This document shows, one piece after another, positions 1,445 to 17,284 of a stretch of 22,597 nt of DNA (its first letter is position 1; each line of letters opens with the position of its first letter). Position numbers and translations under genes: made by a program. The stretch lies in the IMG/VR virus record IMGVR_UViG_2874933748_000003, one strand, 5' to 3'. Source of the stretch: a virus. Taxonomy: Duplodnaviria; Heunggongvirae; Uroviricota; Caudoviricetes. The notes beneath the pieces are model-generated. The model was not told the origin of the DNA. It did no database searches and was given only the letters and a program-made list of their open reading frames with translations.

Positions 1445-1487
1445 TGAGGTGTACTGGCAATAGCGGACACTACCATTTGTTCTTTTT

Positions 1488-2302
1488 TTAAGCAGCCATC
1501 TGATGATATTTTTCCCTGAAGGCTGCCGGGGAGATATTCCCCAGACGAGAGTGACGACGCTGACGATTGTAGAAAATCTCAATGTATTCCCGTATTACTG
1601 AGATGGCTTCATCCCGGTTATTAAAACGATAGTGGCTCAGGCTCTCATTTTTCAGCGTTCCCCAGAAGCTTTCCATCGGAGCGTTGTCGTAACAGTTACC
1701 TTTACGCGACATTGATGTTTTCAGACCAGACTGCTCCTGTATGACCCGGTAATCGTATGCGCAGTACTGTGAACCTCGATCAGAGTGGTGGATTAGCCCG
1801 GCAGGTGGGCGCTGGCTCCTGAGCGCCATAAACAGGGCTTTACCTGTCAGCTCTTTTGTCATGCGCTCTCCATGGCGTAGCCGACAATTTCGCACGTATA
1901 AACATCTTTGATGCCAGCGAGGTACAACCATCCCTCCTGTGTGGCAACATACGTCAGGTCCGCCACCCAGACCTGATTTGGTGCTGTAGGAGCGAACGTC
2001 TGGTTCAGCAGATTTGGCGCAACTGGCAGATTGTGGTTCGAGTTCGTAGTCGCTCTGAACTTGCGTTTCTGCTTACAGCGTAGCCTTAGCTCCTTACGAA
2101 GACGTGCCAGTCGGTCACGACCAACGATGATGCCATTCTCTGCCAGCTCCGTCTGGAGCCGCCGGGTTCCATATGTTTCGCGAGTGCGGATATGTGCCAC
2201 CTTAATCTCCAGTTTTAGCCGCTCATCACTTTGTTTTCTGTCTGAGGGTTCATGCTGTACCCAGTTGTAATAACCGCTCTGGATACACCAAATACCTGAC
2301 AC
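1488..2302 (-). pseudogene. IS600 orfB transposase, frameshifted (split into ORFs 1859-2302 and 1488-1931)
   Basis: Translation matches intact OrfB of copy B; a G-run is one base shorter (GCCATGGAGAG versus GCCATGGGAGAG), breaking the frame. Confidence 0.8.
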
Positions 2303-2339
2303 ATCGCTTCAATGGGAAATTGTTGTCGCCATTGTTCGA

Positions 2340-2609
2340 TTAACGCGTATTTTTCAGCGACTCCTGTGCAAAATACGCTGTTGCTTTTTTTAATATATCT
2401 CGCTCAAGGCGAGCTTCATTTAACGCCTTACGCAGTTGCAGAATTTCAGATTCCAGTTCAGCCACCGTGCGGGAACCAGGAGTACCGAGCCCTTTTCTGG
2501 CGGCGGTAACCCATTGTCCTAAAGTGCCTTCAGGAAGAGATAATCGGGAAGCGCCTTCACTGATCGAAAGTTGATTTTCAAGAACCGTTCTGACAGCTTC
2601 AGCTTTGAA
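2340..2609 (-). pseudogene. IS600 orfA, missing its first ~10 codons
   Basis: Matches OrfA from KEFKAEAVRTV onward; canonical 7-A and 5-A tracts present; N-terminus replaced by IS21-family sequence. Confidence 0.75.
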
Positions 2610-3292
2610 CTCTTTAGAGGTATCGATACCGGCTGACCACACAGCGCTTCGGGAACGCTGTAACGATTACCACCAACCTCGATATAGCTGTCCCAGGACA
2701 CATGGCGGATATCGAAGTAACTGGTATCGAAGTCTGTATCCGGTAACGGCTGCAGATGTTCCTGCTCCAGCGCGAAGCGCTGTTCCGGCGTTTCTTTGAA
2801 CTGGCGAAGCTCCCGTTTGTCAGCCACATCGGCTATCCATTGCTCCAGTTGTTGATTGACATGAGTGAAGCTGTCGAACCTGCGGTACCGGACGAAGAAG
2901 TTCTCCTTGAGGTATTTCACCATCCGCTCAACCTTACCTTTTGTTCTGGCCCTGCGTGGACGGCATGCCCGTGGCAGGAAGTTATAGTGGTCAGCCAGCA
3001 ACAGGAATCCGGAGTTGAACACGACTTTCCCGTTGTTATTCTTCAGCACCGCAGCCTTCTGGTTATCAACCAGCACCGTTTTCACACAATCACCGAAGTA
3101 GCGGAAGGCGCGAACCAGTGATTCGTAGGTATGCTCAGCATCCTGTTTTGGTGCGGCGAAGACATGGAAGCTGCGGGAGAACCCCAGCGTATTAACCGCA
3201 AAGTTAACTTTGCACCGTTGCCCGGCAACCTCCACCTCAACTTCGCCCCAGTCATGCTGGAGCTGGTATCCAGGCTGAGTTTCGAAGCGAAC
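2610..3292 (-). pseudogene. istA: IS21-family transposase IstA, central/C-terminal segment
   Basis: Translation RFETQPGYQLQHDWGEVEVEVAGQRCKVNF...GNRYSVPEALCGQPVSI; ORF 2519-3235 in the track runs on into IS600 sequence. Confidence 0.7.
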
Positions 3293-3356
3293 TGAGGTAG
3301 CCTGAGTTTAACGGACACTCCTTCCTGAAATAGAATGGCATCAGAAGGAGCTAATA

Positions 3357-3656
3357 ATGAGCAGAAAAACCCAACGTTACTCTAAAGAGTTCAAAGCCGA
3401 AGCTGTCAGAACGGTTCCTGAAAATCAACTTTCGATCAGTGAAGGCGCTTCCCGATTATCTCTTCCTGAAGGCACTTTAGGACAATGGGTTACCGCCGCC
3501 AGAAAAGGGCTCGGTACTCCTGGTTCCCGCACGGTGGCTGAACTGGAATCTGAAATTCTGCAACTGCGTAAGGCGTTAAATGAAGCTCGCCTTGAGCGAG
3601 ATATATTAAAAAGCAACAGCGTATTTTGCACAGGAGTCGCTGAAAATACGCGTTAA
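3357..3656 (+). CDS. IS600 OrfA (variant C-terminus ...KSNSVFCTGVAENTR)
   Basis: 99-aa ORF with HTH-like N-terminus MSRKTQRYSKEFKAEAVRTV; first A-tract has 5 A and second has 4 A, versus 7 and 5 in copies A and C. Confidence 0.8.
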   Translation: MSRKTQRYSKEFKAEAVRTVPENQLSISEGASRLSLPEGTLGQWVTAARKGLGTPGSRTVAELESEILQLRKALNEARLERDILKSNSVFCTGVAENTR

Positions 3657-3693
3657 TCGAACAATGGCGACAACAATTTCCCATTGAAGCGAT

Positions 3694-4509
3694 GTGTCAG
3701 GTATTTGGTGTATCCGGAGCGGTTATTACAACTGGGTACAGCATGAACCCTCAGACAGAAAACAAAGTGATGAGCGGCTAAAACTGGAGATTAAGGTGGC
3801 ACATATCCGCACTCGCGAAACATATGGAACCCGGCGGCTCCAGACGGAGCTGGCAGAGAATGGCATCATCGTTGGTCGTGACCGACTGGCACGTCTTCGT
3901 AAGGAGCTAAGGCTACGCTGTAAGCAGAAACGCAAGTTCAGAGCGACTACGAACTCGAACCACAATCTGCCAGTTGCGCCAAATCTGCTGAACCAGACGT
4001 TCGCTCCTACAGCACCAAATCAGGTCTGGGTGGCGGACCTGACGTATGTTGCCACACAGGAGGGATGGTTGTACCTCGCTGGCATCAAAGATGTTTATAC
4101 GTGCGAAATTGTCGGCTACGCCATGGGAGAGCGCATGACAAAAGAGCTGACAGGTAAAGCCCTGTTTATGGCGCTCAGGAGCCAGCGCCCACCTGCCGGG
4201 CTAATCCACCACTCTGATCGAGGTTCACAGTACTGCGCATACGATTACCGGGTCATACAGGAGCAGTCTGGTCTGAAAACATCAATGTCGCGTAAAGGTA
4301 ACTGTTACGACAACGCTCCGATGGAAAGCTTCTGGGGAACGCTGAAAAATGAGAGCCTGAGCCACTATCGTTTTAATAACCGGGATGAAGCCATCTCAGT
4401 AATACGGGAATACATTGAGATTTTCTACAATCGTCAGCGTCGTCACTCTCGTCTGGGGAATATCTCCCCGGCAGCCTTCAGGGAAAAATATCATCAGATG
4501 GCTGCTTAA
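3694..4509 (+). CDS. IS600 OrfB transposase (DDE/integrase core), the only unbroken orfB in the window
   Basis: 271-aa ORF; both halves match the split orfB frames of copies A, D and E. Confidence 0.85.
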   Translation: MSGIWCIRSGYYNWVQHEPSDRKQSDERLKLEIKVAHIRTRETYGTRRLQTELAENGIIVGRDRLARLRKELRLRCKQKRKFRATTNSNHNLPVAPNLLNQTFAPTAPNQVWVADLTYVATQEGWLYLAGIKDVYTCEIVGYAMGERMTKELTGKALFMALRSQRPPAGLIHHSDRGSQYCAYDYRVIQEQSGLKTSMSRKGNCYDNAPMESFWGTLKNESLSHYRFNNRDEAISVIREYIEIFYNRQRRHSRLGNISPAAFREKYHQMAA

Positions 4510-4552
4510 AAAAAGAACAAATGGTAGTGTCCGCTATTGCCAGTACACCTCA

Positions 4553-12226: not shown

Positions 12227-12705
12227 TGAGGTAGCCTGAGTTTAACGGACACTCCTTCCTGAAATAGAATGGCATCAGAAGGAGCTAATAATGAGCAGAA
12301 AAACCCAACGTTACTCTAAAGAGTTCAAAGCCGAAGCTGTCAGAACGGTTCCTGAAAATCAACTTTCGATCAGTGAAGGCGCTTCCCGATTATCTCTTCC
12401 TGAAGGCACTTTAGGACAATGGGTTACCGCCGCCAGAAAAGGGCTCGGTACTCCTGGTTCCCGCACGGTGGCTGAACTGGAATCTGAAATTCTGCAACTG
12501 CGTAAGGCGTTAAATGAAGCTCGCCTTGAGCGAGATATATTAAAAAAAGCAACAGCGTATTTTGCACAGGAGTCGCTGAAAAATACGCGTTAATCGAACA
12601 ATGGCGACAACAATTTCCCATTGAAGCGATGTGTCAGGTATTTGGTGTATCCAGGAGCGGTTATTACAACTGGGTACAGCATGAACCCTCAGACAGAAAA
12701 CAAAG
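12227..12705 (+). mobile_element. IS600 copy C, left ~480 bp only (IRL, orfA, start of orfB)
   Basis: TGAGGTAGCCTGAG at 12227; sequence runs to CAAAGTGA inside orfB, then the left end of copy D begins. Confidence 0.85.
12291..12593 (+). CDS. IS600 OrfA, canonical 100-aa form with the A7 slippery tract
   Basis: Ends ...RDILKKATAYFAQESLKNTR; 7-A and 5-A tracts; reading the minus-one frame from the A7 tract gives the OrfB N-terminus. Confidence 0.85.
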   Translation: MSRKTQRYSKEFKAEAVRTVPENQLSISEGASRLSLPEGTLGQWVTAARKGLGTPGSRTVAELESEILQLRKALNEARLERDILKKATAYFAQESLKNTR

Positions 12706-12769
12706 TGAGGTAGCCTGAGTTTAACGGACACTCCTTCCTGAAATAGAATGGCATCAGAAGGAGCTAATA

Positions 12770-13057
12770 ATGAGCAGAAAAACCCAACGTTACTCTAAAG
12801 AGTTCAAAGCCGAAGCTGTCAGAACGGTTCTTGAAAATCAACTTTCGATCAGTGAAGGCGCTTCCCGATTATCTCTTCCTGAAGGCACTTTAGGACAATG
12901 GGTTACCGCCGCCAGAAAAGGGCTCGGTACTCCTGGTTCCCGCACGGTGGCTGAACTGGAATCTGAAATTCTGCAACTGCGTAAGGCGTTAAATGAAGCT
13001 CGCCTTGAGCGAGATATATTAAAAAAGCAACAGCGTATTTTGCACAGGAGTCGCTGA
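12770..13057 (+). pseudogene. IS600 orfA with altered C-terminus (6-A tract)
   Basis: 95-aa ORF ending ...RDILKKQQRILHRSR; A-tract is one base shorter than in copy C. Confidence 0.7.
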
Positions 13058-13108
13058 AAAATACGCGTTAATCGAACAATGGCGACAACAATTTCCCATT
13101 GAAGCGAT

Positions 13109-13923
13109 GTGTCAGGTATTTGGTGTATCCGGGGCGGTTATTACAACTGGGTACAGCATGAACCCTCAGACAGAAAACAAAGTGATGAGCGGCTAAAACT
13201 GGAGATTAAGGTGGCACATATCCGCACTCGCGAAACATATGGAACCCGGCGGCTCCAGACGGAGCTGGCAGAGAATGGCATCATCGTTGGTCGTGACCGA
13301 CTGGCACGTCTTCGTAAGGAGCTAAGGCTACGCTGTAAGCAGAAACGCAAGTTCAGAGCGACTACGAACTCGAACCACAATCTGCCAGTTGCGCCAAATC
13401 TGCTGAACCAGACGTTCGCTCCTACAGCACCAAATCAGGTCTGGGTGGCGGACCTGACGTATGTTGCCACACAGGAGGGATGGTTGTACCTCGCTGGCAT
13501 CAAAGATGTTTATACGTGCGAAATTGTCGGCTACGCCATGGGAGAGCGCATGACAAAGAGCTGACAGGTAAAGCCCTGTTTATGGCGCTCAGGAGCCAGC
13601 GCCCACCTGCCGGGCTAATCCACCACTCTGATCGAGGTTCACAGTACTGCGCATACGATTACCGGGTCATACAGGAGCAGTCTGGTCTGAAAACATCAAT
13701 GTCGCGTAAAGGTAACTGTTACGACAACGCTCCGATGGAAAGCTTCTGGGGAACGCTGAAAAATGAGAGCCTGAGCCACTATCGTTTTAATAACCGGGAT
13801 GAAGCCATCTCAGTAATACGGGAATACATTGAGATTTTCTACAATCGTCAGCGTCGTCACTCTCGTCTGGGGAATATCTCCCCGGCAGCCTTCAGGGAAA
13901 AATATCATCAGATGGCTGCTTAA
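13109..13923 (+). pseudogene. IS600 orfB, frameshifted (ORFs 13109-13564 and 13480-13923)
   Basis: GACAAAGAGCTGAC has 3 A where the intact copy B has 4. Confidence 0.75.
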
Positions 13924-14016
13924 AAAAAGAACAAATGGTAGTGTCCGCTATTGCCAGTACACCTCACACTCTATCCAACAAACCACCCACAGTTAATCGG
14001 AATAAAAGCAGAGTGC

Positions 14017-16373: not shown

Positions 16374-16479
16374 GATGCCTCCAGGTTTATAAGTACAAAC
16401 GGTTATATCAACATAGAGACAAAAGGTGATGCTGCCAACTTACTGATTTAGTGTATGATCGTGTTTTTGAGGTGCTCCA

Positions 16480-16755
16480 GTGGCTTCTGTTTCTATCAGC
16501 TGTCCCTCCTGTTCAGCTACTGACGGGGTGGTGCGTAACGGCAAAAGCACTGCCGGACATCAGCGCTATCTCTGCTCTCACTGCCGTAAAACATGGCAAC
16601 TGCAGTTCACTTACACCGCTTCCCAACCCGGTACGCACCAGAAAATCATTGATATGGCCATGAATGGCGTTGGATGCCGGGCAACTGCACGCATTATGGG
16701 CGTTGGCCTCAACACGATTTTACGTCACTTAAAAAACTCAGGCCGCAGTCGGTAA
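16480..16755 (+). CDS. insA: IS1 InsA
   Basis: 91-aa [46 protein letters not shown]. Confidence 0.9.
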
Positions 16756-17177
16756 CCTCGCGCATACAGCCGGGCAGTGACGTCATCGTCTGCGCGGAAA
16801 TGGACGAACAGTGGGGCTATGTCGGGGCTAAATCGCGCCAGCGCTGGCTGTTTTACGCGTATGACAGTCTCCGGAAGACGGTTGTTGCGCACGTATTCGG
16901 TGAACGCACTATGGCGACGCTGGGGCGTCTTATGAGCCTGCTGTCACCCTTTGACGTGGTGATATGGATGACGGATGGCTGGCCGCTGTATGAATCCCGC
17001 CTGAAGGGAAAGCTGCACGTAATCAGCAAGCGATATACGCAGCGAATTGAGCGGCATAACCTGAATCTGAGGCAGCACCTGGCACGGCTGGGACGGAAGT
17101 CGCTGTCGTTCTCAAAATCGGTGGAGCTGCATGACAAAGTCATCGGGCATTATCTGAACATAAAACACTATCAATAA
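16674..17177 (+). CDS. insB: IS1 InsB frame (expressed as the InsAB-prime fusion by frameshifting)
   Basis: 167-aa ORF overlapping insA in the minus-one frame. Confidence 0.9.
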
Positions 17178-17284
17178 GTTGGAGTCATTACCAAAAAAAC
17201 CGCCGAAACGGGTTAAGTGCGGGTGCGTTGAGGATGCCTGACACATCAAAGGTGGCGGGAGATTACTCTCCCGCCTGGTCACTC

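Follow-up and report, generated by a model that had tools for sequence, protein, structure and literature searches.

The differences in tract length among the five IS600 copies of this window, the whole 22,597-nucleotide stretch of DNA that was analysed, were very probably consensus errors of long-read sequencing, an artefact and not biology, and the pattern of changes pointed to Oxford Nanopore as the most likely platform. The underlying element was a textbook IS600, and the differences did not belong to the genome itself. With the errors set aside, the window would contain five ordinary IS600 insertions, two of them truncated, with the canonical sequence in each. The errors would consist of homopolymer under-calls (A7 to A6 or A5, A5 to A4, A4 to A3, and G3 to G2) and mis-calls at Dcm-methylated CCAGG.

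The window was a piece of the Shigella sonnei chromosome and contained a decayed lambdoid prophage with IS600 and IS1 elements. Five copies of one 1.26-kb element were recognised from their repetition and from an alignment of all five. Outside them, the window was composed of the minus-strand lambdoid tail genes gpJ, I, K, L, and Lom, together with two IS1 copies. The insertion sequences were arranged as follows.

1445..2619, minus strand: IS600 copy A, 5'-truncated, IS600 positions 88-1264 present
3293..4552, plus strand: IS600 copy B, full length, 1260 bp, with a 3-bp AAC target duplication
12227..12705, plus strand: IS600 copy C, a remnant truncated at its 3' end, with positions 1-479 present, that abuts copy D
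12706..13966, plus strand: IS600 copy D, 1261 bp
16425-17192: first IS1 copy, in direct orientation with the second, beginning with the IS1 terminal repeat
19941-20708: second IS1 copy, likewise beginning with the IS1 terminal repeat
20848..22106, plus strand: IS600 copy E, 1259 bp

The canonical IS600 was 1264 bp long, and copies B, D, and E all became 1264 bp when the missing bases were put back. Copy B was flanked by AAC/AAC, and truncation or rearrangement had left the other four copies without a clean target duplication. The first 300 bases of the two IS1 copies were 99% identical to each other. In the region 12227-13966, the missing 3' part of copy C was not found after copy D. The C/D structure looked as if one IS600 had inserted into another and an adjacent deletion had then occurred, and this arrangement was common to other S. 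sonnei assemblies. The segment between copies A and B (2519-3292) contained an IS21-type transposase fragment, a 238-aa ORF on the minus strand, for which the orthologous product carried the Pfam domains rve and Mu-transpos_C_2; copy A was cut at IS600 position 88 against this fragment.

A canonical orthologue (L015:14960-16223) was aligned with PGAP-annotated IS600 in E. coli genomes with 99.9% identity over positions 1-1264, and the copies in the window were the same as this orthologue after the deletions were restored. Compared with the known IS600 of the IS3 family in Shigella and EIEC, the window differed only by the deletions judged to be errors and by two SNPs common to other assemblies. 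The element had TG...CA ends (TGAGGTAGCC... and ...GTACACCTCA). PGAP named the product 'IS3-like element IS600 family transposase' and described its CDS as a two-piece join with the label 'programmed frameshift'. The canonical OrfA was composed of 100 aa, ending in ...ILKKATAYFAQESLKNTR, with orfB in the -1 frame. A computed -1 slip on tt-A_AAA_AAA-g gave an OrfAB of 385 aa, which was the length of the PGAP product, and precomputed Pfam matches on the orthologous 385-aa products were PF01527 HTH_Tnp_1, PF13276 HTH_21, and PF00665 rve, the last of which is the DDE catalytic domain of OrfB. These results agreed with the earlier note, which had taken the canonical A_AAA_AAA window as a slippery site leading into orfB in the -1 frame.

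Of the five copies, only copy C had a frameshift window that was canonical throughout, with orfA at 12291-12593 (100 aa) and the heptamer A_AAA_AAA at 12542-12548. The two-ORF arrangement of a programmed frameshift was found in the canonical form and in the frameshift window of copy C, and it was absent from copies B, D, and E as they stand in the record. Immediately 3' of the heptamer, a hairpin was predicted at ~12555-12590 of copy C with a modest stability (-13.1 kcal/mol, z = -1.7). Its stem was formed by GCGUAUUUU/AAAAUACGC and three outer pairs, and the second A-tract of the pair at the end of orfA served as the 3' arm. The fifth A of this tract was a bulge, so that the A4 form retained the stem. 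Selection on A-tract 2 through the hairpin was considered and rejected, since the fold was modest and the A4 form lost just the bulged A.

The slippery heptamer of lysine codons in the orfA/orfB overlap and the downstream stem-loop were similar to the -1 frameshifting of the IS3 family (IS911, IS3, and IS150 type), whereas the heptamer of IS600 was A_AAA_AAA in place of the more studied A_AAA_AAG. Among IS1 and IS3 family elements, V_VV.A_AA.R and A_AA.R are the prevailing motifs (PMC4066793). No frameshifting assay of IS600 was found in the searched literature. IS600 is among the five IS expanded in all Shigella species, each with its greatest recent activity in S. sonnei (PMC7373316), and this high recent activity fits intact copies and not wholesale decay.

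The copies were compared at five sites, for which the canonical tract-spanning strings are TTAAAAAAAGC, CTGAAAAATAC, ATCCAGGAGC, CATGGGAGA, and GACAAAAGAG. A-tracts 1 and 2 are the pair at the end of orfA, given below as numbers of A.

2385-2391 and 2350-2354, minus strand: copy A, A-tracts 1 and 2, 7/5
3608-3612 and 3643-3646, plus strand: copy B, A-tracts 1 and 2, 5/4 (A7 to A5, A5 to A4)
12542-12548 and 12579-12583, plus strand: copy C, A-tracts 1 and 2, 7/5
13021-13026 and 13057-13061, plus strand: copy D, A-tracts 1 and 2, 6/5 (A7 to A6)
21163-21167 and 21198-21201, plus strand: copy E, A-tracts 1 and 2, 5/4 (A7 to A5, A5 to A4)
1854-1857 and 4140-4143: copies A and B, orfB GACAAAAGAG tract, A4
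13555-13557 and 21695-21697: copies D and E, orfB GACAAAAGAG tract, A3 (A4 to A3)
1870-1871: copy A only, GGG to GG
12653-12656: copy C, canonical AGGA at the CCAGG site (CCAGG at 12651-12655)
2278-2280: copy A, AGA at the CCAGG site, one G gone
3716-3718: copy B, GGA at the CCAGG site (CCAGG to CCGG)
13131-13133 and 21271-21273: copies D and E, GGG at the CCAGG site (CCAGGA to CCGGG)

The tract lengths of the A-tract pairs reported in the earlier note were confirmed by the alignment and the pattern-match coordinates, as were its counts for the orfB tract and for the GGG run of copy A. Its statement that the frame of orfB relative to orfA varies by copy also agreed with six-frame translations, in which no copy as written had a canonical orfA and slippery window together with an uninterrupted orfB. 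The fifth site, GTATCC[AGGA]GCGG at IS600 position 425, was absent from that note. It was altered in 4/5 copies, in three ways. CCAGG is the Dcm motif, and no other single clue pointed to nanopore as strongly as this site.

Each of the changes in IS600 relative to the 1264-bp canonical element was a net deletion. In addition to the five sites, the copies carried two copy-specific SNPs. At IS600 position 107 (12813 in copy D, 2600 in copy A), copies A and D had GGTTCTTG and copies B, C, and E had GGTTCCTG; near position 104-105, AAAGCTGAAG was present in copy A alone.

In order to compare the same locus in other assemblies, exact-protein look-ups with gpJ and the neighbouring 221-aa protein were used, which gave ~15 S. 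sonnei chromosomes with 10 kb of flank. The IS600 insertions occupied the same sites and had the same flanking DNA, and the copy-specific SNPs were conserved across assemblies; therefore, orthologous copies were compared. Copies A-D were canonical at all sites (7/5, AGGA, GGG, and A4) in L002, L004, L005, L007, and L010, and copy E was canonical at all sites in L012, L013, L015, L016, and L019. In the orthologues of copy B, A-tract 2 (T5) and CCAGG were intact in 10/10, and A-tract 1 was A7 in 6/10 and A6 in the remainder. Seven orthologues of copy E with identical flanks had A7 (five) or A6 (two) at A-tract 1, and the other four sites were canonical. The orthologues of copy A were canonical at the CCAGG and GGG sites, except for GG in L008.

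The 5/4 tracts, the A3 tracts, and the exact CCAGG mis-reads of the window were present in none of the other S. sonnei assemblies compared. The A6 of copy D recurred in L001 and L006 alone, in which every copy had A6, and A6 was found in some copies of L003 and L009. Only the GGG to GG change of copy A was shared, with L008, which was itself error-prone: in this assembly copy D showed A5 to A4 and CCAGG to CCAG, and copy A showed GGG to GG. Each deviating assembly thus departed from the canonical form in a manner of its own, and these assemblies also had private ±1 homopolymer changes in unique DNA.

The earlier note had suggested that the 5/4 pattern shared by copies B and E was a variant that had transposed. 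Both insertion sites were shared with other strains and were canonical there, and thus the 5/4 pattern was not inherited through transposition. The note had also left a choice between transposase pseudogenes supplied in trans and sequencing errors. The error option was supported, as the orthologous copies were mostly canonical, and the pseudogene option was not.

The whole 22.6 kb was compared with a multi-assembly consensus, and 14 discrepant sites were found, of which 12 were in IS600 and the other 2 in unique DNA. Each was either a homopolymer deletion or a CCAGG change. The 12/14 discrepancies inside IS600 fell in 24% of the window (binomial P = 2e-6), and indels were enriched 19-fold in IS600. 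The non-homopolymer discrepancies were at CCAGG in 5/5 sites, while CCWGG made up 0.9% of bases. Homopolymers of at least 5 were wrong in 5/26 cases in IS600 and 1/80 elsewhere (P = 0.003), and Dcm motifs were wrong in 4/10 cases in IS600 and 1/37 elsewhere (P = 0.005). The two discrepancies in unique DNA were as follows.

~980: G5 to G4, which cuts a tail-fibre-like ORF to 185 aa, compared with 228 aa elsewhere
1017-1018: AG to GT in CCAGG (minus-strand reading), Q to R

At 1017-1018, the CCAGG had AG changed to GT in the window and the A deleted in L008. The two outcomes at one motif indicated base-calling and not inheritance.

These data bear directly on the reading in which the indels are real, so that most IS600 copies of the isolate would be recent transposase pseudogenes formed by slipped-strand events, with intact copies acting in trans. 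The frames are truly broken as written, homopolymer runs are natural indel hotspots, for which AAAAAAA is partly avoided in genes (PMC4066793), and S. sonnei has many IS600 copies, so some loss would be tolerable (PMC7373316). However, a single isolate of the very clonal S. sonnei would need 12 independent frameshifts within the 5.4 kb of IS600, whereas the 17 kb of flanking DNA had only 2 changes, both of which were also of error type. The changes in IS600 were deletions throughout, the non-homopolymer changes were exactly on CCAGG with no C to T among them, and the same copies were canonical in most other assemblies of the locus. Furthermore, the same classes of change appeared in another assembly in different copies. 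Real indels were thus very improbable.

Two related sources of genuine mutation were considered and rejected. A mismatch-repair mutator did not account for the 19-fold enrichment of indels in IS600, the consistent deletions, and the placement of non-homopolymer changes on CCAGG. Deamination of 5-methylcytosine at CCAGG did not fit the lack of C to T changes.

The composition of the changes was well matched to nanopore consensus errors. In Enterobacteriaceae sequenced by nanopore, ~70% of consensus errors were in CCAGG/CCTGG and homopolymer lengths accounted for most of the rest (PMC6591954), and in E. coli O157 the discrepancies between nanopore and Illumina data were dominated by A to G mis-calls inside CC(A/T)GG (PMC6703438). 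The window shared with these errors the shortening of homopolymers or the involvement of CCAGG, the A to G change and single-base loss in the motif, and the concentration in a multi-copy repeat. Most plausibly, the errors would have persisted mainly in IS600 because multi-copy repeats are not reliably corrected by short-read polishing, and this weakness of polishing in repeats may explain the 19-fold enrichment in the multi-copy IS. Errors of this kind are known to remain in repeats after polishing with short reads.

Several observations fitted the consensus errors less well. The IS1 copies, which are also repeats, were error-free, with no window-specific discrepancy relative to other assemblies, the A6C frameshift window included. 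IS600 has two Dcm motifs, of which a single one was affected, and the other A7 tract of the element (position 1220) was correct in 4/4 copies in the window, so that the errors were site-biased and non-uniform. In addition, slippage in homopolymers also gives rise to true mutations, and the 5/4 pattern shared by copies B and E and the GGG and A3 shared by copies D and E could in principle have come from gene conversion. It was nevertheless very unlikely that the deletions were real, whether as unusually fast decay aimed at IS600 or as on/off switching of the transposase frameshift window at the DNA level in one S. sonnei isolate, with the 5/4 and GGG/A3 patterns carried from copy to copy by gene conversion.

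An artefact of another source was likewise highly unlikely. Such a source might be 454 or Ion Torrent homopolymers, low-coverage PacBio CLR, or a polisher that mixed reads among the IS600 copies. Homopolymer deletions are shared by several platforms, mis-mapped polishing reads would also enrich errors in repeats (PMC8812927), and the shared patterns (B equal to E, D close to E) could be due to cross-mapping. CCAGG was garbled at IS600 position 425 and, independently, at 1017-1018; this fitted nanopore and was unexplained by the other sources. This alternative differed from nanopore consensus errors in the platform alone and led to the same biological conclusion.

A wider survey of IS600 was carried out with a relaxed pattern that allowed any tract length, applied to species-representative genomes and metagenome contigs. 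It recovered 38 IS600 windows in the species-representative genomes (S. flexneri SFBU1023, E. coli ECMA0423, and one stray contig) and 34 further windows in the metagenome contigs. Together with one more E. coli copy, which brought the genomic copies to 39, the other IS600 copies were 7/5, AGGA, GGG, and A4 in 73/73 where the site was covered. The exact 5/4 string was found in none of the species-representative genomes or metagenome contigs, for which the relaxed pattern served as the positive control. The earlier note had allowed for a reference IS600 whose canonical form is 5/4; the 7/5 form in 73/73 other copies, which PGAP calls as the programmed-frameshift CDS, spoke clearly against this.

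Three products specific to the window were looked up as exact proteins, and none was on record: an OrfA of 99 aa from the 5/4 form, a chimeric ORF of 147 aa from the A3 form, and the truncated tail ORF of 185 aa. This carried no information on the platform and was weak evidence of rarity, because pseudogenes annotated by PGAP are left without a protein product. A low-coverage contig of an assembly named 'Streptomyces sp. UG1' (L036, NZ_JBNGGG010000135.1, 1380 bp, coverage 1.3) carried a canonical IS600, and this contig was almost certainly enterobacterial contamination.

The survey also bore on phase variation, in which the A7 and A5 tracts would slip in the DNA and switch the transposase of IS600 copies reversibly on and off. 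The slippery A7 was the most variable site, in the window (3/5 copies) and in other assemblies, and the hairpin downstream of this A7 has A-tract 2 as its 3' arm. Against this, the 73/73 copies outside these long-read-style S. sonnei assemblies, including the 34 metagenomic copies, were 7/5. The reading of A6 in all copies of two assemblies was a uniform miscall that fits platform error and not stochastic switching, and the changes in the orfB A4 tract, GGG, and CCAGG had no regulatory logic. Phase variation was therefore extremely unlikely.

With consensus errors as the explanation of the tract differences, the transposases with frameshifts in this record would be artefacts, as would the tail-fibre ORF cut short at ~980, and none of them should be counted as pseudogenes. 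The frameshifts of the record are unfit for inferring IS activity or decay in Shigella, or variant frameshift signals. The A7-based windows of programmed frameshifting are the exact points at which a long-read consensus fails, and as a result surveys of recoding sites that use long-read assemblies will meet spurious 'variants'.

In the S. sonnei assemblies of L001, L006, and L011 (CP104423.1, CP104410.1), A6 replaced A7 in every IS600 frameshift window examined, and ±1 homopolymer changes were also present in unique DNA. The A6 throughout these assemblies looked like a systematic under-call. Some 385-aa joined products were still reported by PGAP in them.

In the S. sonnei assembly of L004 / L005 (CP019689.1, 4617915-4650811), the tail block (L, K, I, J, and Lom) was present twice, ~9.4 kb apart, with IS600 between the two blocks. 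The doubled block would be a tandem duplication flanked by IS600 or else an error of assembly.
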